A stretch of DNA of 63,556 nucleotides from an uncultured Desulfobacteraceae bacterium (GTDB taxonomy: Bacteria; Desulfobacterota; Syntrophobacteria; BM002): the NCBI GenBank assembly GCA_964346905.1, contig CAYFXH010000005.1:1-63556 (forward strand), read 5' to 3'. The notes under the pieces are model-generated. The model was not told the origin of the DNA. It did no database searches and was given only the letters and a program-made list of their open reading frames with translations. Every line of letters starts with the position of its first letter. Position 1 is the first letter of the stretch. The translations under genes were made by a program, and so were the position numbers. This document shows, piece by piece, positions 37,190 through 63,556 of this stretch.

Positions 37190-38353
37190 TTAGAATCCCA
37201 GCCTCAGGACCAGGTATACTTTGGGATCGCGCTCGGTATCGGTCACGCTCTGGGCCACATCGAAGCCTACCACAAAGGGGATTTTGCCAAATACGAACAT
37301 CTGCAGCCTCAGACCAGCACCAACGCCCACGTCCACCCCAGAGATGGAGTCACTGTCATCATATTCTCGCCAGATTTGGCCGGTGTCCACAAAAGCCACC
37401 GTCTGCAATTGTTGAAAGTGAAAGAGGTCCCAAGCGGTGGTTGTGCGGTTGATGACGAGAACCGGATAGCGAAATTCTAAACTAGCGGCCCACATCTTTT
37501 CGCCGGAGAAATCGTTAAAGTCGTAGCCTCGCAGACTGTCTTGGCCACCCAGGACAAACAGCCTTGGGTCGTCCTTCTTGACGCCGCCATGGAACCGCAA
37601 GGCCGTCACCAACCGGTGCCCAGACTTGAAATAGCGGCGTAAATTGAGATTGGCATAGAGCCGCAGATCTCCAGAATAACTCTGAAAGTCACGCTGGCTA
37701 CCCAGGGTCTTATCGCCATATTTTGCGGTGAGATTCACCTGGGTGCCGGAAATAATATCCATAATGTAATACTCGGCGGTATCGCGCACCAAACTCAGCA
37801 AGACGCTGTTGAGTCGCTCGGTTTCGTCCGGCAAATCCACCCATGACATCTCATAGCCGGGTGCTATACGATGGTATAGATTGATGGGCCAGCTGACAAT
37901 GGCATTGCCGCCCAGTTCTCTGAGCCAGTCGTCCTCATCATTGCCCGTGTCCTTGAGGTCTCCGAAAAAGGTATTCTTGTCGAAGAGGTTCAATCCGAGG
38001 GCGGGGTACCAGCCCAGATAGCTATAACCTGCCTGCAGTTGTTCCTTACCACTTTCTGTACCCACACCACCACGAAAGCTCAACCTATGCTCTCCCGTGT
38101 AACTGCTGCCTTCCCAATGCATACCGGGGATGACTCCGTCTTTTTCATTGTAGTCCAGATAAGGGAAGAAAAAATCAGTGGAAAAACCACCACGGAACTC
38201 TTGCTGTTCATATGATTCAGCCAAGCCTGAAAATGCAAAGAAAAGAGGCAGGATTGGTACGAATCCAAGCAAAAACAACCTGCTCAGCCCACGTGTCCTC
38301 TGGGGTGACGTTTTGGCGGCTTCCCTCCAGCAACCGTCAAGGCCCGCCGACAT
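37190..38353 (-). CDS. Omp85/BamA-family (bacterial surface antigen) outer-membrane beta-barrel without an obvious POTRA array
   Basis: 387 aa. The C-terminal region reads LGGQDSLRGYDFNDFSGEKMWAASLEFRYPV...GVGAGLRLQMFVFGKIPFVVGFDVAQ and ends in aromatic ...LRLGF. Confidence 0.7.
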   Translation of the reverse strand: MSAGLDGCWREAAKTSPQRTRGLSRLFLLGFVPILPLFFAFSGLAESYEQQEFRGGFSTDFFFPYLDYNEKDGVIPGMHWEGSSYTGEHRLSFRGGVGTESGKEQLQAGYSYLGWYPALGLNLFDKNTFFGDLKDTGNDEDDWLRELGGNAIVSWPINLYHRIAPGYEMSWVDLPDETERLNSVLLSLVRDTAEYYIMDIISGTQVNLTAKYGDKTLGSQRDFQSYSGDLRLYANLNLRRYFKSGHRLVTALRFHGGVKKDDPRLFVLGGQDSLRGYDFNDFSGEKMWAASLEFRYPVLVINRTTTAWDLFHFQQLQTVAFVDTGQIWREYDDSDSISGVDVGVGAGLRLQMFVFGKIPFVVGFDVAQSVTDTERDPKVYLVLRLGF

Positions 38354-40079
38354 CCCCGACTCCTAGCCTCCACGCCAGCATGGGGCTTTCAAAGAGCCTG
38401 TACTGGCCGTGACGAAAGTAGCTGAAGAGCAACCGCTGCCCATCTGGACTGACTTGAGGCGAGAAAATACCGCCAATCACCTGAGACAGAGGCCAGGTGG
38501 CGCCGGTTTGCAGGTCCAGTCGGTGGAGATTAAAAATACCATTCTGATCGGAGACATACAGGAGGGCTTTGTTTTCAGGGAGGAACAGGGACCACAGTTC
38601 ATCGTATGGTGTTTCAGTGAGACGGGTCTCGGTGTCGCTCTTGAGGTCTTTGAGGATCAGATCGTATTGGTGTTGATACTCTCTGGAGAAAACAAGGAAA
38701 CTTCCATCTGACGACCAGCGGGGGTAGGCCTCGTCGTTGCTGGTCTGGGTCAGGGGGGTAACTTCGCCGTCGTCGAGTCGGATCTTGTAGATGTCAGCAA
38801 AACCGTTTACTGTGGCCACAAAGCCCACCTCCCTGTCTCCAGAGAGAAAGGAAGGATATCGATTGATGCGGAGTTTCTGTTTTATTTGTTTCACCTTCTT
38901 CTGCTTCAGATCGTAAACAAAGAGATCGCTGCGATTGTCATCATCGCTCACGATAACGAGACGGCTGCCATCATGGGACCACCCGAGAGGAGAGAGTTCT
39001 AAACCCCGCCTCTTGAGTCTGGTCAACCGGCCGGTGGCAACTTCCATGAGATAGAGCGAAAAATTCAGAGCCTCATTCTCCCAGTCAGACAGGAAGGCAA
39101 TATGGCTGCCGTCGGGACTATAGACCGGGAAGAGATTCCAGCCCTTGTTGGCAGTTAATAGCTCCACTTGGCGGAGCGGGTCCTGCCACCCCGGTCCTCC
39201 CACACGAAGCCGCCCATCGGCATACTGCTGCCAGGCCCGCTCAAGAGTCCTGAAATTTTTGCCGGTGACCTGCTGGAGGGCCTCGTGGATATTCAGCCTG
39301 TTTTTTATCAGTCTGAGGAGACGGGGAACGGATTCCTGGCCATGGGTATCCACCAGAAACTGAATGAAAAGATCACTTTGGTAGTAGGCCAACCGAATTT
39401 GGTGGGGGGGCAAGTGGCTAAAGCCACGCAACTGGTTGAGGGGAATAAGATTGTGGTCCATAACCGCATCTCGTACAAACATGGAAGCCATGGAGCCCCA
39501 AGAGCGGGATTCGTATTGCGCAACCCCTTCCATGAACCAGAGAGGCGACAGCACACCGGTTAGGACAATCTGCAAAGAGCGATAGGGCCCCTCAAGAAGG
39601 TACTTTAGTTGGACGGCGTGGGTGATCTCGTGTAGCGCCAATTGTTTGAGGCGTCTGTCGTTGCTCTGGACCGGGAATACCACTCTCTCTTTGAAGAATT
39701 CGGTAAAGCCACCACTACCCTCAACCAATCCAGTAATAATCTGCGTGGTCTCGTACTCCTCTTGGGATGGATAAATGAATACGGGAATGGTGCGGTCAAA
39801 GTGTATCTCAAGATTCCGAGCGATACGCTCCAGATGAGTCCTATAGATTTCAGCCACGTCCAGGGCTCGCTCTCGGAGGGTATCGGGATAGATGATGCGA
39901 AATTGATCGGTTTGGATCTCCTTCCAGTCATAGCTGGTGTCGTTTACCTTGTTCTTGCCGAACAACCTCTCGGCACCCGTTACGGTCATTTGATCTTGAG
40001 CGCAGGAAAGCATGGCCAGTAGACACAAGCCGGACAAGAGACTGACCAAGGTCTCTTTTCTGTTAGCACTCTTGGACAT
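38337..40079 (-). CDS. Lipoprotein fusion: MA-clan HExxH peptidase-like domain + TolB-like PD40 beta-propeller
   Basis: The probable start is MSKSANRKETLVSLLSGLCLLAMLSC at 40079. Contains LALHEITHAVQ and then repeated PD40-like blades (YSPDGSHIAFLSD, WSHDGSRLVIVSD, PRWSSDGSFLVFS, SPQVSPDGQRLLFS). Confidence 0.7.
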   Translation of the reverse strand: MSKSANRKETLVSLLSGLCLLAMLSCAQDQMTVTGAERLFGKNKVNDTSYDWKEIQTDQFRIIYPDTLRERALDVAEIYRTHLERIARNLEIHFDRTIPVFIYPSQEEYETTQIITGLVEGSGGFTEFFKERVVFPVQSNDRRLKQLALHEITHAVQLKYLLEGPYRSLQIVLTGVLSPLWFMEGVAQYESRSWGSMASMFVRDAVMDHNLIPLNQLRGFSHLPPHQIRLAYYQSDLFIQFLVDTHGQESVPRLLRLIKNRLNIHEALQQVTGKNFRTLERAWQQYADGRLRVGGPGWQDPLRQVELLTANKGWNLFPVYSPDGSHIAFLSDWENEALNFSLYLMEVATGRLTRLKRRGLELSPLGWSHDGSRLVIVSDDDNRSDLFVYDLKQKKVKQIKQKLRINRYPSFLSGDREVGFVATVNGFADIYKIRLDDGEVTPLTQTSNDEAYPRWSSDGSFLVFSREYQHQYDLILKDLKSDTETRLTETPYDELWSLFLPENKALLYVSDQNGIFNLHRLDLQTGATWPLSQVIGGIFSPQVSPDGQRLLFSYFRHGQYRLFESPMLAWRLGVGDVGGP

Positions 40080-40154
40080 ACGTTCACAGAAAATGATGGG
40101 TTGCACCTGCACCCTATCAGCATGAGCGCAGGGAGGATTCACTATAACAACGGT

Positions 40155-41084
40155 TCACTTGGAATCACTGAGACCCTTGGCGGCATCCTCAAGAGTGACC
40201 GCAGTTTCGGTATATAGTACCTGAGCCTGGCGGTGAATCCACCGGACCGAGCGACCAAGCATCTGGCCCGGACCTATTTCAACCATGGGCCCCAGATTCT
40301 GGCTAATCAACTGCTCCACCACCCCCAGCCAACGTACCTGACTGTGGAGCTGAATTGAGAGCAGCTCTGCCACCTGAGCCGCCTTCTCCAAAAACTGGTA
40401 GTCGATGTAGGAGATGATGGGGGTGTGGGGCTCATTGATAGCGGTCTGGGCAATCCTTTCGGCCAAGCATTGATAGGCACCGTTGAGGAGGCTACAGTGA
40501 TAGGGTGCCGCCGCAGGTAGCCAATCGGTCTTTAGAGCTTGGGAATCGAGCGCTCGTTTCAGAAGCTGGTCCACTGCCGGACGCTCACCGGAGACGATGA
40601 TCTGGTGCCTGGTGTTGACGATGCTCACCTCCACCACACCCTTTACCCGTTCGCACAGTTCCTCAATCTCCGGGAGCGAAAGACCCAGGACAACACCCAT
40701 ACCACCCTGGGTGTTGGCCTGCTGGATACAGCGATCGGCTGCCAACATGAGGGTGAGACCGCTTTCAAAGTTCAGAACTCCGGCGGCATAGGCGGCCGCA
40801 TATATTCCTGAACTGTAGGGCGCCAGGGCGGCAGCCCTGATGCCCCTGGCTGCCAGCAAGTCTGCCACCATACAGCTCACGGTGTAGACTGCCACTTGGG
40901 AGATGAGATCCTCATGGAGCCTCTCTTCAGGTCCGGAGAACATGATGTCCCCCAGGGGTAGACCCAAGTGGGCCTCGGCCCGTTTCAGCATATCCATACT
41001 TTCGCTGAAACGTTCAACTAGATCACGCCCCATGCCCAGGTGTTGGGCGCCTTGGCCTGGAAACAGAAAGCTACAACTACTCAT
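40155..41084 (-). CDS. FabD-like acyl-carrier-protein S-malonyltransferase with a non-canonical nucleophile elbow (PYSSG instead of GHSLG)
   Basis: 309 aa. Begins FLFPGQGAQHLGMG. The elbow region is AALAPYSSGIYAAAYAAGV, and the overall length and layout match FabD. Confidence 0.7.
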   Translation of the reverse strand: MSSCSFLFPGQGAQHLGMGRDLVERFSESMDMLKRAEAHLGLPLGDIMFSGPEERLHEDLISQVAVYTVSCMVADLLAARGIRAAALAPYSSGIYAAAYAAGVLNFESGLTLMLAADRCIQQANTQGGMGVVLGLSLPEIEELCERVKGVVEVSIVNTRHQIIVSGERPAVDQLLKRALDSQALKTDWLPAAAPYHCSLLNGAYQCLAERIAQTAINEPHTPIISYIDYQFLEKAAQVAELLSIQLHSQVRWLGVVEQLISQNLGPMVEIGPGQMLGRSVRWIHRQAQVLYTETAVTLEDAAKGLSDSK

Positions 41085-41794
41085 GGCCGGCCCCTACCCT
41101 GAAACTTCTCCACCTGGAAACCTTCTGGAGGCTCAACCCTAAACAAACCGTCCGGGAGTTTGGTGTTTTCGCGTAGGTTTGATAGGTAAATCACGGTCCA
41201 GTCTTTGTTGGACTCTAAGATAGCGATCTCCTGAGGCAGCCAGGTGCTAGGATCGATCTTCACCTCCAACCGTTTAAAATAACGAGCCCTCCTGCGAGAT
41301 TTTGGTTCCATGGTCATCTGCACCCATATTTCACCACCCGGTCGGGGGAGGGGTGCAACCTGTACCCGGTATTGACGCTGAAACGCTTCTGGATCACCAG
41401 TTGCACCGGTGATCCGCTCCAACAGTCCGCCGCCGAGCGGTTTCCGGTACAGATTTGCCTTCTTCAGGTCAGGATAGAGAACAAGAATCATATCATCCTG
41501 GACCACCAGGGTAAGAGGGGCGGGCCCAACCACCTCCCAGTGCAGTCGAGCCGGTGGTTGCCAATAGAGGTTACCCTCCGACTCTAGGGGCGTTACTAGC
41601 AGCCGCGAGTATTTGAGTTGTTGGAAACGAGCGCTGAGGCTTTTGAGTTCCTGGGCCTTGGTCTGGAGGTGGGCAAGCACCTCGGTCGTGGTGAAGGGAC
41701 CGGCTGCTGTCGCCTGCAGCCAGCTAAAGGAAGCAGTTCCGCCCAGAATGAGGCTGAAACTTAGCACAATGGCCAACCGTGCCGGAGTCTTCAT
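41081..41794 (-). CDS. LolA-like outer-membrane lipoprotein-carrier family protein
   Basis: The ATG at 41794 follows AAGGAG and precedes a signal peptide. Contains LKSLSARFQQLKYSRLLVTPLESEGNLYWQPPARLHWEV. It has a 4 nt overlap with the fabD-like gene. Confidence 0.65.
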   Translation of the reverse strand: MKTPARLAIVLSFSLILGGTASFSWLQATAAGPFTTTEVLAHLQTKAQELKSLSARFQQLKYSRLLVTPLESEGNLYWQPPARLHWEVVGPAPLTLVVQDDMILVLYPDLKKANLYRKPLGGGLLERITGATGDPEAFQRQYRVQVAPLPRPGGEIWVQMTMEPKSRRRARYFKRLEVKIDPSTWLPQEIAILESNKDWTVIYLSNLRENTKLPDGLFRVEPPEGFQVEKFQGRGRP

Positions 41795-41924
41795 CTGCTC
41801 CTTTCCATAATGCTGAACCTCTCCAACCGAGCACGCCGAAACCCGGGACTCTAGGTCCTGAACAACGTCACATTCATACGCCAATCACACGTCTACATCG
41901 CTAACTCTCTTCACGCTAATACGA

Positions 41925-42117: not shown

Positions 42118-43104
42118 CTACCTGCGGTACGATTGGATTTTCTGCTCTTCTATGGGCTCCACTAGGTACCACTGGTCCGGATAGCGGCGGATGTATCGTT
42201 CAAATACCGCCGCCACCTGTTCTAGGTTGTGCTGCAGCGCTTTTCTGCGATCAGGGCCATACCGTAAGTTTAGCGGCTGCTCGATGATGCCTCGGTACTG
42301 TCCCGGAGCCTCCATCACTGAAAAGGCAGGAACAACAGGCGCCTGAGCAGCCATGGCCAGAAGTAGCGGTCCCACCGGCAGGTGCACCTGGCGATGGAAC
42401 AATGTCGTTACTTCTGATCGATCAGAAAAAACCCGATCACCCAATACGGCCACCACCTCATTTCGCTTTAGAGCCTTCATTAGCTCAATGGCGCCGTAGG
42501 CTGACTCCTCCACTTCAATGATCTGGATACCGTGACGCTGGCGCATTACATTTATGAGGCCATCGGTGAATGTGGTGTTGTGCCTGATGGCGGCCACGTT
42601 AACCGGATAGCCCATGGCCCGTAACCCCAAACCCCCAATTTCCCAGTGGCCCAGATGCGCGGTCAGCAAAACCGCGCCTCGCCCCTTCAGCAAGGCCTCG
42701 TCCAGATGGTGACGTCCTTCATAGCAGTGAGCAAAAGCTTGGCTTTCCTCCAGTGTCATGCTGAGCAGGCGGAAGAAATCGACAATGTAGATGCCATAGT
42801 TCTGAAAGAATTTCCAGAGTAACAGCCGTCGACCTGCTGGCGGTTGACAGTCATGGAAGATGACGTCCAGATTGTGTAAGACGTGACGCCGGTCGCGTCG
42901 CGAGAATGCAAAGGCCAGTGCAGCAACGATTCGCGCTAACCCATAGGAGACGGATGCTGGCAGAGACTGAACCGTCTTCAGGGCCTGTCGATACAAGAAC
43001 GGTTTATCCAAAACATGTACACGCATGGTCAACCATAGCCCGCAAGAACTGGCAGCAATGAAGTCAGCAACCCTCTTTTGATGTATAATGCAAGGTGCCG
43101 TCAC
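42118..43104 (-). CDS. LpxL/HtrB-family (lysophospholipid/lipid A) acyltransferase
   Basis: 328 aa. The N-terminal TM region is followed by LLTAHLGHWEIGG (HX4E/D-type motif) and VAVLGDR. Confidence 0.75.
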   Translation of the reverse strand: MTAPCIIHQKRVADFIAASSCGLWLTMRVHVLDKPFLYRQALKTVQSLPASVSYGLARIVAALAFAFSRRDRRHVLHNLDVIFHDCQPPAGRRLLLWKFFQNYGIYIVDFFRLLSMTLEESQAFAHCYEGRHHLDEALLKGRGAVLLTAHLGHWEIGGLGLRAMGYPVNVAAIRHNTTFTDGLINVMRQRHGIQIIEVEESAYGAIELMKALKRNEVVAVLGDRVFSDRSEVTTLFHRQVHLPVGPLLLAMAAQAPVVPAFSVMEAPGQYRGIIEQPLNLRYGPDRRKALQHNLEQVAAVFERYIRRYPDQWYLVEPIEEQKIQSYRR

Positions 43105-43625: not shown

Positions 43626-44936
43626 ATGTCACTCCGTATACTGTTGATTTCCCCCATTGGTCTCAAGAAAGTTCTCGGAGCAGATTTTTTCTTTAAGCTG
43701 CCCTTTTTGGGCTTGCCTACCATCGCTGCGTACACTCCGCCGGGTTGTGAAGTCAAGATGGTGGATGAGCGAATAAGTCCAGTGGATTTCGATGATGATG
43801 CAGATCTGATCGGGATTAGCGTGATGACTCCACTGGCTACCCGGGCCTATGAGATTGCGGATGAGTTCAAGCGACGGGGCAAGACGGTTGTTATGGGTGG
43901 CATGCACGTGTCCGCACTTCCGGATGAAGCCCTGGAGCATTGCGATGCGGTCGCGATTGGCGAAGGGGAACAAGTATGGCCCCAGATGGTGGAGGACTTC
44001 AAAAGAGGGGAACTGAAAAAGATCTACAAGGCCGAAAAGTTGTTTGACTTATCGGCAGCGCAACCGCCCAGATGGGATATCATTGACAAGGGATTGTATA
44101 GTCCGGTGGACTTCATCGAGACCACCCGAGGATGCCCGATCAACTGCAATTTCTGCGCTGTTACCCAGTACTACGGGGCTAAATACCGAACCAAACCCGT
44201 CGGTCTCGTTGAGGAAATGGTGGCACAAGTAAAGCCGGTGGATAAAATCCTCGCTCTCAAGAATCTCATATTCTTCGTTGATGACAACATTATTGCTAAC
44301 CGGAAACACGTCATAGAGCTGTTGAGAATGTTAAAATCTTACAATATCCAGTGGCTAGGGCAGGCCTCCATATCGGTTGCGAAGGATGACGAACTCCTGA
44401 AGCTCATGTCCGAAACCCGGTGTCTCGGGCTCCTGATAGGGATGGAAAGCCTTTCCAATGACACCTTGGCGGAATGTGGCAAACGTATCAATAAACCGGC
44501 TGAATACGAGGAGGCCGTGGCCAGGTTGCACCGTTATGGCATTGGCGTGAAGGCTGCGTTTATGGTTGGCTTCGACAACGATGACATCTCCGTATTTCCT
44601 ACAATGGAAAGATTCATCCGAAGATCCAGCTTTGACAGCGTCTATTTCAGTATTCTCACACCCTATCCGGGCACACGGCTTTATCAGCAGATGGAGAGCG
44701 AGGGCAGGTTGATCCACAAGGATTGGGCAAGGTACGACACTGCTCATGTTGTTTTTCGTCCGAAAAAAATGACCGTGCAACAGCTGGAACAGGGATTTAT
44801 CTGGCTCAATAAGAAGGCCCTTTCGCTCAGATCCATAGTTTTGCGACTTGCTTGGGCGAGAACAGTACCTCAGTTTTTCATTCCTGACAATTTAGCCTTC
44901 AGATCCTGCCTTTTGAAAATGCTGCGAGGGGCATAA
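43626..44936 (+). CDS. B12-binding-domain radical SAM protein
   Basis: 436 aa. The N-terminal Rossmann-like cobalamin domain reads DLIGISVMTPLATRAY...VVMGGMHVS. It is followed by TRGCPINCNFCAV (CX3CX2C). Confidence 0.85.
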   Translation: MSLRILLISPIGLKKVLGADFFFKLPFLGLPTIAAYTPPGCEVKMVDERISPVDFDDDADLIGISVMTPLATRAYEIADEFKRRGKTVVMGGMHVSALPDEALEHCDAVAIGEGEQVWPQMVEDFKRGELKKIYKAEKLFDLSAAQPPRWDIIDKGLYSPVDFIETTRGCPINCNFCAVTQYYGAKYRTKPVGLVEEMVAQVKPVDKILALKNLIFFVDDNIIANRKHVIELLRMLKSYNIQWLGQASISVAKDDELLKLMSETRCLGLLIGMESLSNDTLAECGKRINKPAEYEEAVARLHRYGIGVKAAFMVGFDNDDISVFPTMERFIRRSSFDSVYFSILTPYPGTRLYQQMESEGRLIHKDWARYDTAHVVFRPKKMTVQQLEQGFIWLNKKALSLRSIVLRLAWARTVPQFFIPDNLAFRSCLLKMLRGA

Positions 44937-45178: not shown

Positions 45179-45814
45179 GTGAGCAGCGGTTTTCAGATGC
45201 ATTCAAAGAGAGGTTTTCTCTTGCGCTTGATACGGTTGGTTGCAGCTCTAACGGTTCTAACCTTGTTGGGCTGCGCCACTCCTCCACCTGTTCCCGAGAG
45301 GCTTGCATTTCTGGACTATCAAGGGCACGTCAATGAACACCACATTTTCATCCAGGCGCCTCCTTCCCGTATCTTTGCCGTCCTCACTGACTTTGACCGG
45401 TATGTCACTTTAGTTCCCTCTGACCGTGTCCAGCTGAGCAAGGTGAATCCCGGGCCGTATGAGGTTGGTACCATCATTCGGGCCGAAACGCTTTACAGAA
45501 TCAAGGTTCGGTGGGACTCACAGGTTGTGGCAATACAAAAAGATCGTCTTCTTGTGCTCCAGTTCTTGAGCGGCATCTTTCAGGGGGGCTACGAGGTGTG
45601 GCAACTTATACCTCAAGGAAATTCCACCAGGGTGAGTCATAGCCTTATGTACAATATTTCCAGTTTTCTTTACAGAGTGTTATGGGTGCTCAAGCGGGGA
45701 GAGCACAAGCACAACACGTTGACGGAAGCAACCATTCAGAATCTGAAACGTGCATGCGAGACCGAGCTGCCTCATCCTCAAGGGGAAGCGAGCCAGGAGG
45801 GAGAGCGGTTGTGA
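45179..45814 (+). CDS. SRPBCC (START/polyketide-cyclase-like) lipid-binding-fold lipoprotein
   Basis: 211 aa. The lipobox is LTLLGC. Contains HIFIQAPPSRIFAVLTDFDRY. The start is uncertain, either GTG 45179 or ATG 45197. Confidence 0.65.
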   Translation: MSSGFQMHSKRGFLLRLIRLVAALTVLTLLGCATPPPVPERLAFLDYQGHVNEHHIFIQAPPSRIFAVLTDFDRYVTLVPSDRVQLSKVNPGPYEVGTIIRAETLYRIKVRWDSQVVAIQKDRLLVLQFLSGIFQGGYEVWQLIPQGNSTRVSHSLMYNISSFLYRVLWVLKRGEHKHNTLTEATIQNLKRACETELPHPQGEASQEGERL

Positions 45815-54031: not shown

Positions 54032-54066
54032 AAAAAAAAAGGAGCAGGCGTTCACGTGCCTGCTCT
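54032..54066 (-). terminator. Rho-independent terminator of the ATP-grasp/radical-SAM/NHL operon
   Basis: The minus strand reads GAGCAGGC-ACGTGAAC-GCCTGCTC (8 bp stem, 8 nt loop), then C and T9. It lies 63 nt after the stop of the NHL gene. Confidence 0.8.
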
Positions 54067-55796: not shown

Positions 55797-57175
55797 TTCT
55801 GGTCTCCTTGCAACCGCCTGGACTGGGAATACGCCTGCCAGGCCGGATCGGCGAACGACTTGTACGAGTCAGCAAACTCATCCATGGAATCAGCCAGTTG
55901 GGTGAAGATCAAATCCGCCCCCTCATGGGTGAAGTAGGCCCCGTGGTTCAGCGCCATCTCACGGCCCACCTCAGGGTGATCCACAAGCATGCAGGGGCGA
56001 TACAAGTTGTCGTCGTATGGTATCTTTGCTTTTATTGCCTGAAACAAGGGAGAGTTGAGGGCTTCTTTCAATGAGGTGTTATGGATGTTGTGGGTGGCAA
56101 AGTGGCAAAACACACAGGGCTCCACATCACCCTTGGCATTGATGTGCGCATACTTGCGAGCGCCGGACATGCAGCCATTCACCACCGGACCATCATTCCA
56201 AAAATCTATGAACAGCATTGCCTTGCTATTGCGCCAGCGGCCCAGGCACGCCCTCAGATAATCTCTTTGAGCGGGAGTAGGCATGAGTTCGGTTTTAGGA
56301 TCCCTTCCCACCGGGACATACATGAAGTAGCAGCCGAGAAGGCACCCTTTTTCACTCATGAAATCTATGAATTCGTCGCTGGTGATGATGTCGTGATTCT
56401 CTTTGGTTTGCGTGGCGGAGTAGCCAAAGAGCACCCCCCCATCACGAAGCATGTCCATGGCCTGCATAACCCGGTCGAAGTGACCTTTTCCTCGCCTCTG
56501 ATCTGTGTATTCCCTGTAGCCCTCAATGCTGATAGAGGGTAGGACATTGCCCACCGAGACGATCTTTTCCACTATTTTTTCGTCAACAAGGCCCCCGTGG
56601 GTATACACCAGGAAGGACATATCATTGTGCTTCCGGAAAATATCAAAAATGTCCTTCCGGAAGAAAGGCTCACCCCCAGAAATGGTGATGAAATAGATGC
56701 CCATTTCCTTGGCCTCATCGAGGATCCGGTCTATGGTCTCAAAACTCAATTCGTCATTCTGCGTGTAGCTGCCCGCATAGCAGCCAAAACAGTTGAGGTT
56801 GCAGCGCATGGTGGGGCTGATTACCAGGAATCCCGGGGGGTAGTAGCCTCCGGGATCTTGAGCGAAGGCTTTACGTTTGTTGGTGCCTACCAGGAGTTGG
56901 TTGATAACGTAGCTTTGGATGATGGTCTTGCGGTGGTGGGGGTTGAGAGACCGAAGTATTTTCTTGGTAATTTCCAGGCTGGGATGTCCCTGGTCAAAAA
57001 GATCTCGAATCCACCGAATCCGGTGAACATAGTAGTCCCTCTTCGCGAGCTTTTCGGCAAGCTTGGCCACCGTCAGGTAGATGAGCTTGAACAGTTTGTC
57101 GTTGCTTACATGGGCCAGGGAAGCCATCAACAGATTAATGGCGTGAACTTCCAACCGATGGTTATTGGTCTTCAA
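55793..57175 (-). CDS. Radical SAM enzyme with a long helical N-extension and a C-terminal auxiliary-cluster-like Cys motif
   Basis: 460 aa. Contains ISPTMRCNLNCFGCYAGSY (CX3CX2C) and ITISGGEPF. The C-terminal region has GCMSGARKYAHINAKGDVEPCVFC...YRPCM. It has a 4 nt overlap with the NHL gene. Confidence 0.85.
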   Translation of the reverse strand: MKTNNHRLEVHAINLLMASLAHVSNDKLFKLIYLTVAKLAEKLAKRDYYVHRIRWIRDLFDQGHPSLEITKKILRSLNPHHRKTIIQSYVINQLLVGTNKRKAFAQDPGGYYPPGFLVISPTMRCNLNCFGCYAGSYTQNDELSFETIDRILDEAKEMGIYFITISGGEPFFRKDIFDIFRKHNDMSFLVYTHGGLVDEKIVEKIVSVGNVLPSISIEGYREYTDQRRGKGHFDRVMQAMDMLRDGGVLFGYSATQTKENHDIITSDEFIDFMSEKGCLLGCYFMYVPVGRDPKTELMPTPAQRDYLRACLGRWRNSKAMLFIDFWNDGPVVNGCMSGARKYAHINAKGDVEPCVFCHFATHNIHNTSLKEALNSPLFQAIKAKIPYDDNLYRPCMLVDHPEVGREMALNHGAYFTHEGADLIFTQLADSMDEFADSYKSFADPAWQAYSQSRRLQGDQK

Positions 57176-57839: not shown

Positions 57840-59126
57840 TCAGATTCTCCTTCTCATACGGACATGGATAAAGTCTTTACTCCCGTAAAAGGGCAGCAAG
57901 GCCAGCAAACTCCCAAAGATTGGCAGAGGATCGTCCAGGTCAATGATGTCATAGCGCAAATTCGGTTGGTGGAATTCAAAAAAGCTCGGTTTCAGTTGCC
58001 AGCGATTGGGGTTTTGCAGGAAGTGGAGAATATCTCCCGGAAGGAGCCAGCGGCAACGCTGTCCCACCTTGTAGTGGTGCACAGTAGGAACATCCAAACC
58101 CAGGGCCATTAAGGCCAGCAGGTAGGGGAAATTCACCCCAGCATGGATTGCTAGGGCCAATGATCCCCAAAAGCGAGGATTTACCTCTAGCAGCTTGGCT
58201 TTGCCATCGCGAGTATCGATTTTGAATTCAGCCATGGCCACGCCCACCAAATGGAGGCTCTCCAAGAGTCTCGCCCCGTCACGTCTCGCCTGGTCATGGA
58301 TAAAGCTTTCGCGCAGAGTACTGGGCCCACCATCTACTGGGTACTCTCGAAGGCGGCGATGGATAAAGCTGGCTCGCACCTGATGATCTTGATCCAGCAG
58401 GAAACTGGCGCCAATCCCTGCACCCTGAGGTGGCAATCTTTCCTGCAGCAATGGCAGTTGTCCAGAATGAAACACTCGCTCCAGGGCAGCGACTAACTGC
58501 TCTGGCCCCGCCACGTATTGGACCCCAGCGCTTCCTGACCCCACTCTCGGCTTGACCACCACCGGATACTCCAGCTTTCTGCTCAGTGGTTTGGCTTCTT
58601 CTATAGTGGTAATCTCGAAGGTTCTCGGAATGGGGATACCCAGTGCTTCTGCTCGCCTGAGCACCTTCAGTTTGTCACGAGCGAAGAGCAAACTCTGGTA
58701 CGCGGCAAAAGGGAGACGAGTTTTATCTTGAAATCGCTCCCTGTTTTGGGCAAGCAGCAGCAGGGTGTCCTCCTCCATTGGCATAAGCACGTGGTGGGGT
58801 TGTCGATCCAGATAGTTTTCGAGAAAGACAAGGTATTGGGACGGCTGCAGAACAGGGGATGGGGTGCGGACCCGGCGGTGACAGTAGCGGGAGAAGAGCG
58901 CGGGCGCCAGATAGGTGCTCTCACCGACGGTAACTCGCATCCCCATGCGGCCAAGGGCTCGAACCGCGGCAAGCGTCTTGCGCCAGTAACCATCGGTGAT
59001 GAAGATACGAGTCTTTTTCAGGTCCGTGGGGACTTGTCCTGGGAGTGAGTTGGGAAGGTGGGTACGGCAACTCTTGTGCAGGTCGGCCTTGCTGCTGAGG
59101 GCGAAATTCCATATCGTACTGTTCAT
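57840..59126 (-). CDS. ATP-grasp-fold carboxylate-amine/thiol ligase-like protein
   Basis: 428 aa. Contains IFITDGYWRKTLAAVRALGRMGMRV, YPVVVKPRVGSGSAGV and MAEFKIDTRDGKAKLLEVNPRFWGS. Confidence 0.75.
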   Translation of the reverse strand: MNSTIWNFALSSKADLHKSCRTHLPNSLPGQVPTDLKKTRIFITDGYWRKTLAAVRALGRMGMRVTVGESTYLAPALFSRYCHRRVRTPSPVLQPSQYLVFLENYLDRQPHHVLMPMEEDTLLLLAQNRERFQDKTRLPFAAYQSLLFARDKLKVLRRAEALGIPIPRTFEITTIEEAKPLSRKLEYPVVVKPRVGSGSAGVQYVAGPEQLVAALERVFHSGQLPLLQERLPPQGAGIGASFLLDQDHQVRASFIHRRLREYPVDGGPSTLRESFIHDQARRDGARLLESLHLVGVAMAEFKIDTRDGKAKLLEVNPRFWGSLALAIHAGVNFPYLLALMALGLDVPTVHHYKVGQRCRWLLPGDILHFLQNPNRWQLKPSFFEFHQPNLRYDIIDLDDPLPIFGSLLALLPFYGSKDFIHVRMRRRI

Positions 59127-59493
59127 GAGTTTGTCAGGATTAGACGTTTAGCTGGACCGTGGTATAGTACTATAGCAAATGGGCGAGGGATTCAATGCCA
59201 TATTCTCCTGTCTACACCGGGATGCAACCTGAGTCAACCTTGACGCGAAAGGCATAATCTGATAAACAACACTACCTCTCCCCAGCCAATTTTTCTTCCT
59301 TCGCTACGAGAAAATTGTGTTCGTTCTCAAGAGGCCCACCAGAACTAACTGGTGCCAAGAGAAATAGAAGCTCGTCGGCCTGGTAAGAGATTGGGATTTT
59401 GACGGCACAGTAAATCCGCCTGAACCGGACCAGATGCAATCCCGCCGAGGGCGGGACACCTGGACTTTTTGCGAAGCCGTCAAGCTTGGTTCT

Positions 59494-60234
59494 ATGAGAT
59501 TCAAGGGTAAAATCGCTCTTATAACTGGTGGAATCCGAGGCATTGGTGCGGCCATTAGCAAGAGTTTCCTTCTCGAGGGTGCCCATGTTGTGGTAACCTA
59601 TTCCCAGGATCAAGATCAGGCGCGAACATTTCAAGAGGAACTCGGGACCAGTGCTCCACAAGCGATTGTTCACCGTGCAGACGCGTCTGACTTTGATGGT
59701 ATGAAAATTCTGGTCGAGCAAACCCTTGAGCAATTTGGCCGTCTGGATATCCTGGTAAACAACGCCGGAATTCGGCGTGACAACCTGGTAATGTTCATGT
59801 CTGAAGCAGAGTGGCATGATGTGCTGCGGGTGAATCTCCAGGGTACTTTCGTCTGCTCCAAGCTGGCACTGAAACCCATGATTGCCCAGCGGTGGGGACG
59901 GATGATCAACATCGTCTCACCGAGTGCATTAATGGGTCGTCAAGGCCAGGCCAACTATGCCGCAGCCAAAGGGGGTGTAGCAAGCTTCACCAAGTCTCTG
60001 GCAAGAGAGGTGGGTAAGCTCGGTATCACTGTCAATGCCGTGTCTCCTGGGGTCATTGAGACCGATATGACTCGTTCCTTGCCTGAAAAAACCCTGGCTG
60101 AACTGAAGCAGTCCATCCCCATGGGCCAATTCGGCCGACCGGAAGATGTGTGCGGAACAGTTTTGTTCCTGGCCTCAGAGGGAGCCTCTTATATTACCGG
60201 ACAAGTTATCAGGGTGGATGGAGGTTTGACCTGA
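59494..60234 (+). CDS. fabG: 3-oxoacyl-ACP reductase (SDR)
   Basis: The internal ATG at 59494 gives MRFKGKIALITGGIRGIGAAIS. Also present are NNAGI, GQANYAAAKGG and GQVIRVDGGL. Confidence 0.85.
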   Translation: MRFKGKIALITGGIRGIGAAISKSFLLEGAHVVVTYSQDQDQARTFQEELGTSAPQAIVHRADASDFDGMKILVEQTLEQFGRLDILVNNAGIRRDNLVMFMSEAEWHDVLRVNLQGTFVCSKLALKPMIAQRWGRMINIVSPSALMGRQGQANYAAAKGGVASFTKSLAREVGKLGITVNAVSPGVIETDMTRSLPEKTLAELKQSIPMGQFGRPEDVCGTVLFLASEGASYITGQVIRVDGGLT

Positions 60235-60286
60235 GCCAATTTATTGGACCAAATTTTGCATATACGGGCTTGAACAGAAGCTTCTC

Positions 60287-60607
60287 ATGAAGGAGGAACT
60301 GGCATTGCAAATGTCCTTGTTAGAGCGGGAAGATCTCGTCGAACATCTGAAGGCGCTCCTTGTCCGCACTCTCCGTTTAGAAGACATTGGCCCGGAGGAC
60401 ATCGTTGACTCAGAGCCCCTGTTTGGCGATGGGCTAGGCCTCGATTCCATCGATGCCCTGGAATTGGTGGTTGCCATCGAGAGGGAGTACGCTGTTGAGA
60501 TCCCAGACGCGGAGGTGGGACGGCGTGCTTTTGCTTCAGTCGATGCGCTGGCGGATTTCATACGTGAGAAGGGGGCGGTGCAAAAGGCTTCCGATGCGGT
60601 GGGTTGA
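60287..60607 (+). CDS. Acyl carrier protein (long form)
   Basis: 106 aa. Contains LFGDGLGLDSIDALELVVAIE, with the phosphopantetheine Ser in DSID. Confidence 0.8.
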   Translation: MKEELALQMSLLEREDLVEHLKALLVRTLRLEDIGPEDIVDSEPLFGDGLGLDSIDALELVVAIEREYAVEIPDAEVGRRAFASVDALADFIREKGAVQKASDAVG

Positions 60608-61019
60608 AACCACGACGAAGGTCAGGTTCAATGAGGTGGATCAATGGGGCATAACCTGGTACGGTCACTATTTTGCCTGGTTTGAACTGGCTCGGATGAA
60701 AGTTCTGGAGAAGTTCTCCCTCCTTCCCGAAGACTTCACCGCTTTGGGGTTTGTGGCACCGGTGGTGAATGCCCATTGCGAATTCAAGAAACCAGCCCGC
60801 ACCAATGACCTCATACAGATACGAGCACACCTTCTGAAGCCACAGACGGCATCTCTGACCTTTCAATTCGAAATTCTGTTGCAGAATGACGAATCTTTGC
60901 TCGCCAGGGGTGAAACGGTTCAGGTCTTACAGCGGTTGGATGGAACCATGATATACAAACTAACCGGCACCCTCAAAGAGCGGGTGGAGTCGATGGTCCA
61001 ATATTTTTGGCCCGAATAA
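60594..61019 (+). CDS. 4HBT/YbgC-type hotdog thioesterase
   Basis: The ATG at 60594 overlaps the ACP stop by 14 nt. Contains TKVRFNEVDQWGITWYGHYFAWFELARMKVLEK. Confidence 0.7.
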   Translation: MRWVETTTKVRFNEVDQWGITWYGHYFAWFELARMKVLEKFSLLPEDFTALGFVAPVVNAHCEFKKPARTNDLIQIRAHLLKPQTASLTFQFEILLQNDESLLARGETVQVLQRLDGTMIYKLTGTLKERVESMVQYFWPE

Positions 61020-61230: not shown

Positions 61231-61668
61231 ATGTCACTCTCCCATGAACAGGTTCAGAACTTGCTGCCTCACAGATATCCCTTTCTCTTCGTCGACAAAG
61301 TCACTTCCCTGGAACCTGGTCATAGAGTGGAAGGTACATTCCAGGTAAAAGGTGACCACCCCTTCATTAACAAGGTCGGCGAGATTCCAGTTTTTCCAGC
61401 CTTTCTGGTGGTTGAAGCCCTGGGGCAAGTGGCGGCGCTCTGTATCCGTTATCCCCAGCAAAAATCTTCACCTGTACCTGGTGGCCAAGGTTTTCTGGTT
61501 CGCATTGACCAATGTTCATTGGAAAAACCAGCCCGGCCGGAGGACGAGTTACTTTTGACAGCCAATCTGGTGAGAGGATTTACCACCCTTTATAAATTCG
61601 AGGCAAAAGGTTTCGTTGATGGCCAAGTAGTGGTGAAGGCGTCCTTGACCCTTTACCTGGAGTTCTAG
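61231..61668 (+). CDS. FabZ/FabA-like hotdog beta-hydroxyacyl-ACP dehydratase
   Basis: 145 aa. Contains LLPHRYPFLFVDKV and DHPF...FPAFLVVEALGQ (His/Glu pair). Confidence 0.8.
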   Translation: MSLSHEQVQNLLPHRYPFLFVDKVTSLEPGHRVEGTFQVKGDHPFINKVGEIPVFPAFLVVEALGQVAALCIRYPQQKSSPVPGGQGFLVRIDQCSLEKPARPEDELLLTANLVRGFTTLYKFEAKGFVDGQVVVKASLTLYLEF

Positions 61669-61671
61669 CAT

Positions 61672-62403
61672 ATGGCAGTCCCCAAAGATGCAGCATCTTT
61701 CAGATTGTGTGGACTGGTTCCTGCTTTCAATCTTTCTCGTACTATTTCTCAGGTTGTCCGGCAAACCCGGCAGTACCTACCCGAGGTTCTGGTAGTGGAT
61801 GATGGTTCCCAGGATGATACGGCCCAACTGGCCAAGAAAAGTGGCGCCAAAGTTCTCAAAATTCCCAGAAACCAAGGGAAAGGGTGGGCCTTGCGATGTG
61901 GTATCAGGTATTTGCTGCAGGATCCATGGGAGGGGATAATCACTCTTGACGGCGACTTGCAGCACGATCCAACCGAGATCCCCAAACTCGTCCAGGAGTA
62001 TGAACGCACAGGTGCACACATTGTCGTTGGCTCTAGAATGGAGGAGGCGAAAAAGATTCCCTGGATTCGCTATTGGACCAATAGAGTTGGAGTCTACTGC
62101 ATCTCGTGGGCGGCCGGGCAGCCGTTGGCGGACACCCAAAGCGGCTTCCGTGTTTACCGCAGAGAGGTTTTTGAATTGATTCCGCTCTGGACCACTCGTT
62201 ACGATACCGAGACGGAAATCTTGATCAAAGCCGGCATGCGGGGAATGAGGATCACATCTGTTCCCATACAAACGATTTATCATAAGGATGATGCAAACAG
62301 CTCTTCTTTCCGACCTTTTCCGGATACTTTCCTCATTTGCATGGTGTTCTTGAAAAGCCTCTTCTGGCGAAAGGGGTTGTATTTACGTGATTTTGAGATA
62401 TGA
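61672..62403 (+). CDS. Family 2 glycosyltransferase
   Basis: 243 aa. Contains VPAFNLSRTISQVV, VVDDGSQDDT, RNQGKGWAL and DGDLQHDP. It starts 4 nt after the dehydratase stop. Confidence 0.8.
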   Translation: MAVPKDAASFRLCGLVPAFNLSRTISQVVRQTRQYLPEVLVVDDGSQDDTAQLAKKSGAKVLKIPRNQGKGWALRCGIRYLLQDPWEGIITLDGDLQHDPTEIPKLVQEYERTGAHIVVGSRMEEAKKIPWIRYWTNRVGVYCISWAAGQPLADTQSGFRVYRREVFELIPLWTTRYDTETEILIKAGMRGMRITSVPIQTIYHKDDANSSSFRPFPDTFLICMVFLKSLFWRKGLYLRDFEI

Positions 62404-62494
62404 GATAACCGATATCGTTGGAGTGGAGGAGTACTCCGTAGACTTTGACTGCTCTCACGTCTGTGGAGCCTTTAAAACATTGGGGTGGGGTTAG

Positions 62495-63556
62495 ATGAGT
62501 AGGTCGGATGTAATTGTCACCGGAATAGGTGTTGTCTGCGCTCTCGGGGAGAATAAGGACTTATTTTGGAATGCTCTACGTCAGGGCACATGCGGAATCG
62601 GCTCCATAGATCTCTTTAATGTTTCGGGGTACCGCAGCCGTATCGGTGGTCAGGTAAGAGATATTGATTTCTTCTCCCGACTCTCCCCGCACCATTGTCG
62701 TCGGTTGGGACGTTGCGATCTTTTAGGGCTTTGGGCTGCCCATGAAGCTTTAGAGGAAGCGAAAATCATGGAACGCGCCCTTCCTCCCGAGCGCATTGCC
62801 GTCGTCCTAGGTGCAGGTGCCGGCGGTGTACTGGAGGCAGAGCAATACCGCCGCCAGCTCTACGAGGGTCTGGTGCGACCGCGTCCATCTCTGCTTATGC
62901 CGTTTCCGGCCTGCAACCTCACCGACGCCATCGGCAACCTTTACGGTTTTCACGGACCTCGATCTACCATTGCCACCGCTTGCTCTTCCAGTGCTACCGC
63001 CATAGGCTATGGCGCAGATCTCATTCAGTCTGGCCAAGCTGAGGTGGTTATTGTCGGAGGTGCTGAGTCCCTCTCGGAACTTACCTTTTCCGGCTTCAAC
63101 GCGCTCCGCTCAGTGGATCGCTCCACCTGCCGACCTTTTGATCGGAATCGGGAAGGGTTGGTGCTCGGCGAGAGCGGAAGTATTCTGGTGCTCGAGTCAC
63201 GGCGGTTCGCCGAGGCCCACGGGATATCTGGTTATGCTCGCGTGCTTGGATATGGCATTTGTGCCGACGCCTACCACATGACTTCTCCCGATCCTCAGGG
63301 GGAGGGAGCAGAAAGAAGTATGGCCAATGCACTTAACAATGCAGCGGTACCTGCAGATGCAGTGGACTATGTCAACGCCCACGGCACCGGCACGGTACTC
63401 AATGACAGAGTGGAGACTATGGCGATCAAGCGGCTTTTCGGCAAAAGGGCCCAATCGATGCCGGTCAGTTCCGTCAAATCCGCCATTGGACACTGTCTCG
63501 GTGCCGCCGGAGGGGTGGAGGCTGCCGCCACCATCTTGGCCCTCCATCACGGGGTA
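62495..63556 (+). CDS. Beta-ketoacyl-ACP synthase I/II-type condensing enzyme; the 3' end runs off the right window edge
   Basis: Not in the ORF track because there is no stop in the window. Hand translation gives MSRSDVIVTGIGVVCALG... It contains IATACSSSATAIG (Cys), ADAYHMTSP (His) and VNAHGTGT (His). The frame is open to 63556. Confidence 0.85.
   Translation, partial: MSRSDVIVTGIGVVCALGENKDLFWNALRQGTCGIGSIDLFNVSGYRSRIGGQVRDIDFFSRLSPHHCRRLGRCDLLGLWAAHEALEEAKIMERALPPERIAVVLGAGAGGVLEAEQYRRQLYEGLVRPRPSLLMPFPACNLTDAIGNLYGFHGPRSTIATACSSSATAIGYGADLIQSGQAEVVIVGGAESLSELTFSGFNALRSVDRSTCRPFDRNREGLVLGESGSILVLESRRFAEAHGISGYARVLGYGICADAYHMTSPDPQGEGAERSMANALNNAAVPADAVDYVNAHGTGTVLNDRVETMAIKRLFGKRAQSMPVSSVKSAIGHCLGAAGGVEAAATILALHHGV

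Follow-up and report, generated by a model that had tools for sequence, protein, structure and literature searches.

A ladderane-type gene cluster with a HAD/BCR-superfamily enzyme in an uncultured Desulfobacteraceae bacterium is a candidate pathway for a specialised envelope lipid

Introduction

A core set of genes resembling those of fatty acid synthesis was reported in 2009 from a comparison of the genomes of Kuenenia, Desulfotalea and Geobacter, with Pelobacter also compared (Rattray 2009, PMC2649909). This core consists of an active ketosynthase (KS), a dead KS, an acyl carrier protein (ACP), FabZ and a B12-binding radical S-adenosylmethionine (SAM) enzyme (B12-rSAM); it also includes other radical SAM enzymes, together with genes for a methyltransferase, glycosyltransferase and deacetylase (PMC2649909). 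In anammox bacteria, Cluster I encodes amxACP and amxFabZ, one active and one dead FabF, an enzyme resembling phytoene dehydrogenase, and a B12-rSAM (bioRxiv 10.64898/2026.05.19.726425; PMC13459092). The clusters that antiSMASH assigns to its 'ladderane' class in Desulfobacterota have been reported to be expressed, with no function assigned to them (PMC9902471). In this study, we analyzed a stretch of 63,556 nucleotides (nt) from an uncultured Desulfobacteraceae bacterium (contig CAYFXH010000005.1; the whole stretch is called the window below) and a gene cluster towards its right end that belongs to this family.

Two further systems are relevant for the comparison. The ape genes for aryl polyene synthesis in E. 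coli encode a KS, a ketoreductase (KR), a dehydratase (DH), an ACP, a thioesterase, a family 2 glycosyltransferase (GT2), an acyltransferase, a methyltransferase, a LolA-like protein and an RND/MMPL transporter (PMC8253772, Table 1). Anaerobic ether-lipid synthases turn an sn-1 ester into an alkyl or vinyl ether. A fused layout of activase and DUF2229 domains has been described for the glycerol ester reductase Ger (BBDHDDH, PMC13159169) and for the plasmalogen synthase PlsA/PlsR (Act1-Act2-Red1 plus Red2, PMC12838417), and confirmed alkyl-ether producers have two fused activase domains and a reductase domain in one chain ('BBD', PMC13159169).

An initial annotation of the window had described an island at positions 37190 to 63556, had likened it to aryl polyene clusters and had noted no described cluster with this combination of genes. 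We find that the cluster is an extended new variant of an already known, uncharacterised family. We estimate with a probability of about 0.6 that the genes from 35412 to beyond 63556, ~33 kb overall, form one biosynthetic gene cluster and constitute a dedicated pathway for a specialised envelope lipid, in a family previously known from sequence comparison alone.

Results

The closest relatives are ladderane-type clusters

The window ends within the gene of a FabF-like KS (KS1). We followed the cluster beyond this edge by scanning metagenomes with the partial KS, which identified the loci L081 (JABAOD010000030.1, KS 100% identical) and L082 (83%); related loci carry such numbers throughout. Downstream of KS1, L081/L082 encode, in this order, a second KS (KS2), a second B12-rSAM, a DUF3473 polysaccharide deacetylase and a TPR/DUF2271 protein. 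Extension to the right, suggested in the initial annotation, thus recovered the expected chain length factor (CLF)-like partner in the form of KS2, and starter genes were not found. The adenylating enzyme and ammonia-lyase, whose absence had already been remarked upon, were encoded neither in the window between 35 and 63.5 kb nor in the ~10 kb beyond its edge in L082. In our alignment, KS1 has kept the catalytic Cys, His, Lys and His, and KS2 is without the Cys and both His in every lineage examined (L081, L082, L013, L162 and Geomonas). KS2, which lies just past the window edge, is therefore predicted to be catalytically dead. This pattern matches the amxFabF2/amxFabFmut pair of anammox bacteria (bioRxiv 10.64898/2026.05.19.726425). 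The second B12-rSAM (L082:5146-6525) passes the cut-off of TIGR04072, 'lipid biosynthesis B12-binding/radical SAM protein' (383.5, cut-off 360).

Judged by gene content, the closest relative of the cluster is the ladderane-type family (Cluster I), which is closer than the aryl polyene clusters. The common features are a dedicated ACP, a FabZ-like DH and an active KS followed by a dead KS, without an enoyl reductase, as well as the TIGR04072 B12-rSAM (in the extension), more radical SAM enzymes, a glycosyltransferase, a SAM methyltransferase of an unusual type and a gene resembling those of polysaccharide deacetylases. The initial claim of novelty therefore does not hold for the core, which is covered by the comparative genomics of 2009 (PMC2649909), the TIGR04072 model and the antiSMASH 'ladderane' class. 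To the ladderane type, the window adds a HAD/BCR-superfamily protein with its activase, an ATP-grasp ligase, an MMPL exporter, LolA and an LpxL-type acyltransferase, and further an Omp85 barrel, a peptidase-TolB protein, a CsgG/NHL protein and a phosphodiesterase-family protein. Searching the literature, we found no paper that reports HAD/BCR or DUF2229 genes from clusters of the ladderane or aryl polyene type, none that ties ATP-grasp ligases or the Omp85/peptidase-TolB pair to the ladderane-type family, and nothing for the Geobacter locus tags GSU0456-0462. The HAD/BCR/DUF2229, ATP-grasp and Omp85/peptidase-TolB genes thus seem to be new in this family.

Could the cluster make ladderane lipids? 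The ACP, the FabZ-like DH, the active and dead KS and the TIGR04072 B12-rSAM are in common with anammox Cluster I, and some relatives of the NC10 type have a phytoene-desaturase-like gene. However, ladderanes have been reported from anammox Planctomycetota only and were not found in Desulfotalea, which has a syntenic cluster (PMC2649909, PMC9902471). They are not expected in the host, a Syntrophobacteria-like deltaproteobacterium. The phytoene-desaturase-like gene of Cluster I has no counterpart in the window or L082 and occurs only in the NC10-type loci L049 and L042. The DH is nearer to ordinary FabZ structures than to 7qv0 and 8ayi, which we take to be anammox FabZ chains, their identity being unverified. 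We consider ladderane production extremely improbable. The idea that the DH and KS2 are specifically related to anammox proteins was rejected as ordinary FabZ/FabF structures score higher. For the KS1 orthologue, the top PDB sequence match is 9s5h_B, slightly above ordinary FabF; 9s5h holds two different KS chains and is presumably the anammox KS heterodimer, the name of the entry being generic.

The likeness to aryl polyene clusters, put forward in the initial annotation, stands in so far as the gene roles parallel the E. coli ape list (PMC8253772, Table 1), although the ladderane-type family is closer. Like aryl polyene and flexirubin clusters, the cluster has a KS/CLF pair, KR, DH, ACP, thioesterase and methyltransferase and no enoyl reductase; a glycosyltransferase and an acyltransferase would serve lipid anchoring, and the LolA-like protein and RND/MMPL transporter the route to the outer membrane, a set that parallels ApeD, J, K, L and M (PMC8253772). 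A true pigment cluster of the aryl polyene/flexirubin type, with its aryl-starter genes elsewhere in the genome, would explain this overlap, and also that flexirubin LolA2 is the top NCBIfam match for the LolA-like protein, that the KR matches the flexirubin-type FlxB model and that the L166 orthologue of the DH carries Pfam ApeP-like. Yet the flexirubin models are well below their cut-offs (246 against 340 for the KR; Table 1 for LolA), and ApeH, ammonia-lyase, ApeG, a LolB-like DUF3261 protein and a second DH (E. coli has two, ApeI/ApeP) are absent from both window and extension, as is ApeN from the window. Moreover, the acyltransferase is of the LpxL type, the two to three B12-rSAMs, the radical SAM/SPASM enzyme and the HAD/BCR protein are foreign to such clusters, and the second B12-rSAM falls into TIGR04072, a ladderane-type lipid family. 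A pigment cluster is thus very unlikely.

The chain-building genes are probably dedicated

The FAS (fatty acid synthase)-like genes are probably not those of housekeeping fatty acid synthesis. The equivalog cut-offs of the housekeeping models in NCBIfam were missed by FabD, ACP, FabZ and the full-length orthologue of KS1 (431.9 with the FabF model, cut-off 493.75), and FabG was borderline. An enoyl reductase gene was not found in the cluster, and a bona fide FabH that passes the NCBIfam cut-offs is encoded elsewhere in the window (16913-17902, + strand). The sub-cut-off scores, the dead KS2 and the separate FabH speak against the possibility that these are the only housekeeping fab genes of the organism, a comparison that covers the genes of the window. 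In the FabH region (16913-20022, + strand), the fabH gene is followed by genes for an Old-Yellow-Enzyme-type oxidoreductase and a YciK-like short-chain dehydrogenase/reductase and not by the usual fabD-fabG-acpP-fabF.

The genes stay together through rearrangement

To collect related loci, we scanned one genome per species with the 771-residue HAD/BCR protein, which gave 80 loci, and then used tblastn with all proteins of the cluster and clustering of open reading frames (ORFs). As supposed initially, the operons belong together and are not neighbours by chance: the same gene set is present, in shuffled order, in ~20 Syntrophobacteria-like metagenome-assembled genomes (MAGs), whose HAD/BCR proteins range from 84% down to 59% identity to that of the window. 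L013 has a single run of genes for the SPASM enzyme, small membrane protein, deacetylase, ATP-grasp ligase, HAD/BCR protein, activase, KR, ACP, thioesterase and GT2, continued by KS1, KS2, B12-rSAM, peptidase-TolB and Omp85. In L014, L016, L017, L019 and L166, these genes recur in different arrangements, with identities of 40-75%. As the genes remained together through rearrangement at this level of divergence, they are likely to be functionally linked.

The association extends to other groups. The HAD/BCR gene has a B12-rSAM gene no more than 10 kb away in 13 of 20 Syntrophobacteria-like loci, all seven of a second deltaproteobacterial group, half of the Nitrospirota (8/16) and both NC10-type loci, and in 1 of 36 from other phyla. 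The Nitrospirota and NC10 core comprises the active and dead KS, B12-rSAMs, ACP/KR/DH/FabD, LolA, and HAD/BCR with activase. Six Nitrospirota loci (L036, L040, L044, L045, L048 and L065) share the order HAD/BCR (two genes), activase, LolA, KS1, KS2 and up to three B12-rSAMs. The NC10-type loci L049 and L042 encode three B12-rSAMs, LpxL, KS1, KS2, a phytoene-desaturase-like flavoenzyme, HAD/BCR, FabD, KR, ACP and DH, and L042 additionally has peptidase-TolB and Omp85. The phytoene-desaturase-like gene (L049, 7922-9463; L042, 7942-9462) is flanked by the dead KS on one side and by the HAD/BCR genes on the other. One Nitrospirota MAG carries its genes on two contigs, with HAD/BCR, activase, LolA and KS on L037 (JBFMDL010000012.1) and LpxL, B12-rSAM, SPASM and B12-rSAM beside cellulose-synthase genes on L163 (JBFMDL010000043.1).

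Two loci have the core without the HAD/BCR enzyme. The cultured Geomonas sp. Red276 (L161) encodes the methyltransferase, deacetylase, GT2, SPASM enzyme, LpxL, ACP, B12-rSAM, FabD, thioesterase, a further B12-rSAM, KR, KS, dead KS, LolA and LolB, with an Aas-like fusion of AMP-binding, ACP and acyltransferase domains nearby; HAD/BCR is absent within 10 kb. A Desulfobacteraceae MAG (L162) has two divergent core operons and MMPL without HAD/BCR. Since the core exists in this form, the HAD/BCR-activase pair appears from these comparisons to be an accessory module that joined the cluster in several phyla.

These loci also bear on whether the five operons could be independent neighbours, namely a FAS-like set, an ATP-grasp and SPASM pair for a peptide that is made by the ribosome and modified after translation (RiPP), a PlsA/Ger-like enzyme for bulk phospholipids, and envelope proteins. 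Such independence would agree with the core of L161 and L162, with the solitary HAD/BCR-activase pair in Bacillota, Chloroflexota and Actinomycetota, and with the usual place of SPASM and ATP-grasp enzymes in the maturation of peptides, where the maturases SkfB and SuiB, whose structures are nearest to that of the SPASM enzyme, also belong. It is difficult to reconcile with genes that were kept together through several rearrangements, down to ~40-60% identity, with the Geomonas SPASM gene between GT2 and LpxL inside the FAS-like operon, or with the NC10-type HAD/BCR genes between KS2/desaturase-like genes and FabD-KR-ACP-DH. There is also no plausible precursor-peptide ORF near the ATP-grasp and SPASM genes. 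We regard independent neighbours as quite unlikely. The RiPP idea was dropped for the lack of a convincing precursor, the intergenic gaps there being 68 and 95 nt.

The HAD/BCR enzyme is a possible relative of PlsA and Ger in a different split

The 771-residue protein has the features of the HAD/BCR superfamily, which are the fold, an activase alongside and conserved Cys residues in each module. A PDB sequence search with the protein gave no match. With its AlphaFold model (predicted local distance difference test, pLDDT, 85.4), all 17 Foldseek matches with E<=1e-3 were BzdNO, HadBC, DCCP or MbdON. Each of these matches covers about half of the query, which therefore has two tandem catalytic modules (Red1-Red2). 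Cys106/141/326 and Cys456/486/713 are invariant across 47 homologues, and we infer that these two triads, one per module, are ligands of Fe-S clusters. The activase gene adjoins the HAD/BCR gene in 63 of the 80 loci.

An alignment covering 91% of the protein pairs it with the C-terminal region of proteins of 1000-1340 residues that combine PF01869 and PF09989; it is 28% identical, end to end, to residues 617-1339 of the fused protein P0102 (E 2e-74), whose second activase domain shares 46% identity with the window activase. These alignments suggest that the 771-residue protein and the activase together are a differently split version of the PlsA/Ger domain layout. The likeness to PlsA/PlsR and Ger lies in the BcrAD_BadFG activase and the DUF2229/HGD-D modules, in the alignment to fused proteins of that layout, and in the class of oxygen-sensitive Fe-S enzymes of anaerobes, here with two sets of three conserved Cys. 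The split differs: the window has a separate activase and a Red1-Red2 fusion; in Ger, a single chain holds Act-Act-Red1-Red2; and in C. perfringens, Red2 is separate from Act-Act-Red1. Identity with the fused relatives is low, at 22-28%, and the HAD/BCR gene of the window is embedded in a biosynthetic cluster, whereas PlsA and Ger stand alone. In Nitrospirota and NC10 loci (L036, L040, L049, L042 and others), the catalytic protein is encoded by two genes of ~335 and ~365-420 residues, corresponding to Red1 and Red2. The enzyme has thus apparently been split and fused in several ways across lineages.

In our literature search, the Ger/PlsA papers alone treated DUF2229/PF09989 at length; the term merely turned up in one unrelated paper. 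Ger/PlsA-like conversion of an ester to an ether is the best lead for the reaction of the HAD/BCR enzyme by analogy, and an ether-linked lipid is consistent with the split PlsA/Ger layout. We hold an ether-forming step to be possible, with the odds somewhat against it.

Bacillota, Chloroflexota and Actinomycetota contain the pair of HAD/BCR and activase genes on its own. In the Bacillota loci L052, L054, L056, L062 and L063, as in some Peptococcaceae, it lies a few genes from an apparent plsX-fabH-fabD-fabG run, and in these Bacillota loci it is near rsmD-coaD, recG and riboflavin genes; these neighbours were named by homology clustering and reading by eye, with no family scan. This context fits a lipid-related role of the pair even without a specialised cluster.

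Tailoring, attachment and envelope proteins

The first B12-rSAM has HpnJ, BchE and HpnR as top NCBIfam matches, all far below their cut-offs, and scores 74.6 with TIGR04072 (cut-off 360). The methyltransferase gene adjoins the HAD/BCR gene in 22 loci, and its true start is probably downstream of 45682. Orthologues of the SPASM enzyme are 54-58% identical in Nitrospirota, Geomonas and Desulfuromonadaceae. Its model (pLDDT 90.9) retrieved only generic SPASM/twitch proteins with Foldseek (SkfB, SuiB, anSME, BlsE and PqqE; TM ~0.5), with the lipid enzyme GDGT-MAS at rank 37 only, and the search did not indicate a substrate. The top PDB sequence match of the ATP-grasp ligase is 2pn1. The GT2 comes closest to the NCBIfam models PpgS, AglJ and ArnC-like without reaching any of their cut-offs, and an exact-sequence look-up of the protein found no record. 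The pairing of Omp85 and peptidase-TolB is kept in L003, L008-L010 and L013 and also, with 25-27% identity, in L042 and L046. The SRPBCC (LLGC), PEGA (LSGC) and peptidase-TolB (MLSC) proteins carry lipoboxes.

It is conceivable that the LpxL-like acyltransferase transfers a special fatty acid, the product of the cluster, directly from the dedicated ACP to lipid A. Rhizobia have such a system, AcpXL/LpxXL, with its own ACP, a FabZ-like DH, two FabF-like KS and an LpxL-family acyltransferase, and housekeeping enzymes supply the missing steps. The cluster has the same dedicated components, LpxL-family enzymes use acyl-ACP donors, and the GT2, deacetylase and phosphodiesterase-family proteins resemble types that modify lipid A. 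However, the AcpXL/LpxXL system has no radical SAM enzymes, HAD/BCR, GT2, MMPL or LolA, and its acyl chain takes the normal lipopolysaccharide route as part of lipid A; with MsbA/Lpt export, a dedicated MMPL and LolA would be needless. In addition, the LpxL-like protein is below the cut-offs of lipid A acyltransferases, its top NCBIfam match being a phosphatidylinositol mannoside (PIM) acyltransferase model, and the thioesterase and ATP-grasp ligase suggest that the chain is released and then ligated again. Lipid A acylation is therefore an unlikely explanation, and we favour a dedicated pathway for a separate envelope lipid.

Gene content and boundaries

The ORF list and scans with Pfam and NCBIfam confirmed the 23 genes of the initial annotation at their coordinates and reproduced their families (Table 1). 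The named genes had significant matches except for the weak PEGA hit and the ORF at 49368-49895, which had none. The reported tight overlaps (17, 4 and 4 nt) were read off the ORF coordinates, and the terminator predicted after the CsgG/NHL gene was located as a strong hairpin at 54065-54042 (- strand).

Table 1. Features of the gene cluster within the window, in order of position. Scores below an NCBIfam cut-off are given with that cut-off.
Feature	Coordinates	Strand	Evidence and remarks
Periplasmic phosphodiesterase/alkaline-phosphatase-superfamily protein	35412..37133	-	Pfam Phosphodiest 8e-23
Small Omp85-family outer-membrane barrel	37190..38353	-	Pfam Omp85 1.9e-15
Lipoprotein, metallopeptidase (MA clan) and TolB-like beta-propeller	38337..40142	-	Pfam Peptidase_MA_2, PD40; 17-nt overlap with Omp85 gene
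FabD-like malonyl-CoA:ACP transacylase	40155..41084	-	Pfam Acyl_transf_1 2e-25; NCBIfam fabD 178 bits (cut-off 260.9)
LolA-like periplasmic lipid/lipoprotein carrier	41081..41884	-	Pfam LolA 1.6e-13; top NCBIfam flexirubin LolA2 68 bits (cut-off 125)
LpxL-family (lipid A-type) acyltransferase	42118..43104	-	Pfam Lip_A_acyltrans 3e-34; no NCBIfam cut-off reached
B12-binding radical SAM enzyme 1	43626..44936	+	Pfam B12-binding, Radical_SAM
SRPBCC (lipid-binding fold) lipoprotein	45179..45814	+	Pfam Polyketide_cyc 1e-6; conserved in 13 related loci
SAM methyltransferase, N-terminal Zn-ribbon	45682..46638	+	Pfam Methyltransf_23 2.5e-23; CxxC...CxxC motif
Small PEGA-like lipoprotein	46670..47047	+	Weak Pfam PEGA 0.002; conserved in 11 loci
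HAD/BCR-superfamily protein, 771 residues, DUF2229 and HGD-D, tandem Red1-Red2 modules	47063..49378	+	Pfam DUF2229 8.6e-53, HGD-D 4.4e-10
Orphan ORF, 175 residues, signal peptide	49368..49895	+	No Pfam/NCBIfam match; between convergent HAD/BCR and activase genes
ATP-dependent activase (BcrAD_BadFG), predicted electron-delivering ATPase for the HAD/BCR protein	49963..51006	-	NCBIfam TIGR00241 203.6 (passes cut-off 125.4)
MMPL/RND-type lipid exporter (predicted)	51207..53792	-	Pfam MMPL 3e-32; top NCBIfam HpnN 275 bits (cut-off 751)
Intrinsic terminator	54042..54065	-	8-bp stem, 6 G-C pairs, T9 tail; closes ATP-grasp to CsgG/NHL operon
Envelope protein, CsgG/LpoB-like N-terminal domain and NHL beta-propeller	54129..55796	-	Pfam NHL 4e-39, CsgG 1e-13; 9 related loci
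Radical SAM/SPASM enzyme, ~110-residue helical N-terminal extension	55793..57175	-	Pfam Radical_SAM, SPASM
Small integral membrane protein PF06695	57244..57744	-	Pfam Sm_multidrug_ex 9e-14; position kept in L162, L166
ATP-grasp ligase	57840..59126	-	Pfam ATPgrasp_Ter, CPSase_L_D2, ATP-grasp_3; conserved in 14 loci
FabG-like ketoreductase	59434..60234	+	TIGR01830 294.6 (cut-off 297.75, borderline); passes NF009466, 245.6 (cut-off 222)
Dedicated acyl carrier protein	60287..60607	+	Pfam PP-binding 9e-11; DSI serine motif; TIGR00517 42.6 (cut-off 70.45)
Hot-dog (4HBT/YbgC-like) thioesterase	60594..61019	+	Pfam 4HBT_2 8.7e-11
FabZ-like dehydratase	61231..61668	+	Pfam FabA 8.5e-13; TIGR01750 85 (cut-off 155)
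GT2 glycosyltransferase, polyprenyl-phosphate-sugar-synthase type	61672..62403	+	Pfam Glycos_transf_2 1.3e-24
FabF-like ketosynthase KS1, predicted active	62495..63556	+	Pfam ketoacyl-synt N and C domains; truncated by window end

The core of the cluster is where the initial annotation had placed it, and its limits lie further out on both sides. The phosphodiesterase gene adjoins the cluster in L008, L009 and L011 (75-79% identity) and is inside it in L166, between FabD and SRPBCC (58% identity); because of the arrangement in L166, we let the cluster begin at least at 35412. To the right, it continues beyond the window. Compared with positions 57665-63556, L081 extends 1.4 kb further, its end-to-end comparison runs ~22 nt out of register and its sequence includes N bases. 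Possibly, this contig represents the same genome, or one nearly identical to it, in a variant assembly. The term island is apt for a gene cluster and not for a mobile element. A mobile island was rejected as the GC content is even (0.48-0.55) and integration hallmarks were not seen in the window, where a scan for riboswitch and tRNA boundaries found no tRNAs and no Rfam matches at the gathering score.

The LpxL-like gene and the operon of the first B12-rSAM are separated by a divergent intergenic region of 521 nt (43105-43625), presumably a regulatory region, in which Rfam did not find a cobalamin riboswitch. The secreted protein encoded at 49368-49895 had been counted as part of the second operon. 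None of the ~165 related loci has a homologue, and the HAD/BCR and activase genes end ~16 nt apart in relatives. We therefore rejected it as a conserved component; it is probably a lineage-specific insertion or an orphan gene and not part of the system.

Left of the cluster, 34258-35190 (- strand) encodes a 310-residue protein without family match that is conserved in L011 only (76%). Further left, 27667-30654 (- strand) encodes a 695-residue protein with Nuo51 FMN-binding, NADH 4Fe-4S and ferredoxin domains, adjoined by a 2Fe-2S/4Fe-4S protein; the pair resembles an NADH-linked, possibly electron-bifurcating module and is unrelated to the cluster.

Discussion

We propose that a chain is started and elongated on the dedicated ACP by the KS1/KS2 pair, together with the FabD-like loader, KR and DH. 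The acyl chain would be unusual and probably unsaturated, since the lack of an encoded enoyl reductase leads us to expect unsaturated intermediates. The B12-rSAMs, the SPASM enzyme and the methyltransferase may methylate or otherwise rework the chain. Its coupling to an anchor, either an amino sugar or a lipid, could fall to the thioesterase, the ATP-grasp ligase, the LpxL-type acyltransferase, the GT2 and the deacetylase, and we count the phosphodiesterase-family protein with them. MMPL would pump the product out and LolA would carry it across the periplasm, while the lipoproteins (SRPBCC, PEGA and CsgG/NHL), Omp85 and peptidase-TolB might handle it at the outer membrane. The HAD/BCR protein and its activase would perform an ATP-driven, low-potential radical reduction or dehydration; the favoured reaction is that of PlsA and Ger, from a lipid ester to an alkyl or alkenyl ether, and a thioester intermediate is the alternative substrate. 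Taken together, these proposals tentatively outline an undescribed class of outer-membrane lipids of anaerobic Desulfobacterota, Nitrospirota and NC10, with a polyketide-like chain that is reworked by B12-rSAM/SPASM enzymes, sits on an amino-sugar or lipid anchor and, in the versions with HAD/BCR, is ether-linked by a split relative of PlsA/Ger. This more specific picture is less likely to be right than wrong.

Several points weigh against our interpretation. No product has been seen for any non-anammox member of the family. The distinction between dedicated and housekeeping enzymes comes from the genes of the window, and an enoyl reductase could act in trans, which makes the unsaturated chain insecure. 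The roles given to Omp85, peptidase-TolB, CsgG/NHL and the ATP-grasp ligase are derived from family names only. As for the ether, the fused relatives that we aligned (P0102 and others) are uncharacterised proteins and not tested Ger or PlsA sequences; the arrangement of BBD in one chain was not found here, as the catalytic protein is without PF01869 and the single-domain activase is separate. Moreover, the HAD/BCR-activase pair occurs in unrelated contexts in other phyla, for example beside tatABC, and Geomonas and the Desulfobacteraceae MAG do without it, so that the ether step, if real, would be an add-on.

The cluster family is widespread in environmentally dominant anaerobes, including syntrophs, sulfate reducers, Nitrospirota and NC10, in which it represents an orphan pathway. 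Calls of 'ladderane' or 'arylpolyene' from genome mining in Desulfobacterota should not be taken as predictions of the product. If our reading is true, a PlsA/Ger-like enzyme within a dedicated lipid pathway would extend anaerobic ether-bond formation beyond bulk phospholipids, and the ether-lipid reading bears on the use of bacterial ether lipids as sediment biomarkers.

How ladderanes are made has long been an unsolved problem. The core of active KS, dead KS, ACP, FabZ and TIGR04072 B12-rSAM is the prime candidate for the ladderane machinery of anammox bacteria. Its presence far outside the anammox bacteria, with a version in the cultured Geomonas, makes the question of its product experimentally approachable: the chemistry of the shared core in a tractable carrier would show what the core makes and, then, what anammox bacteria add to it.

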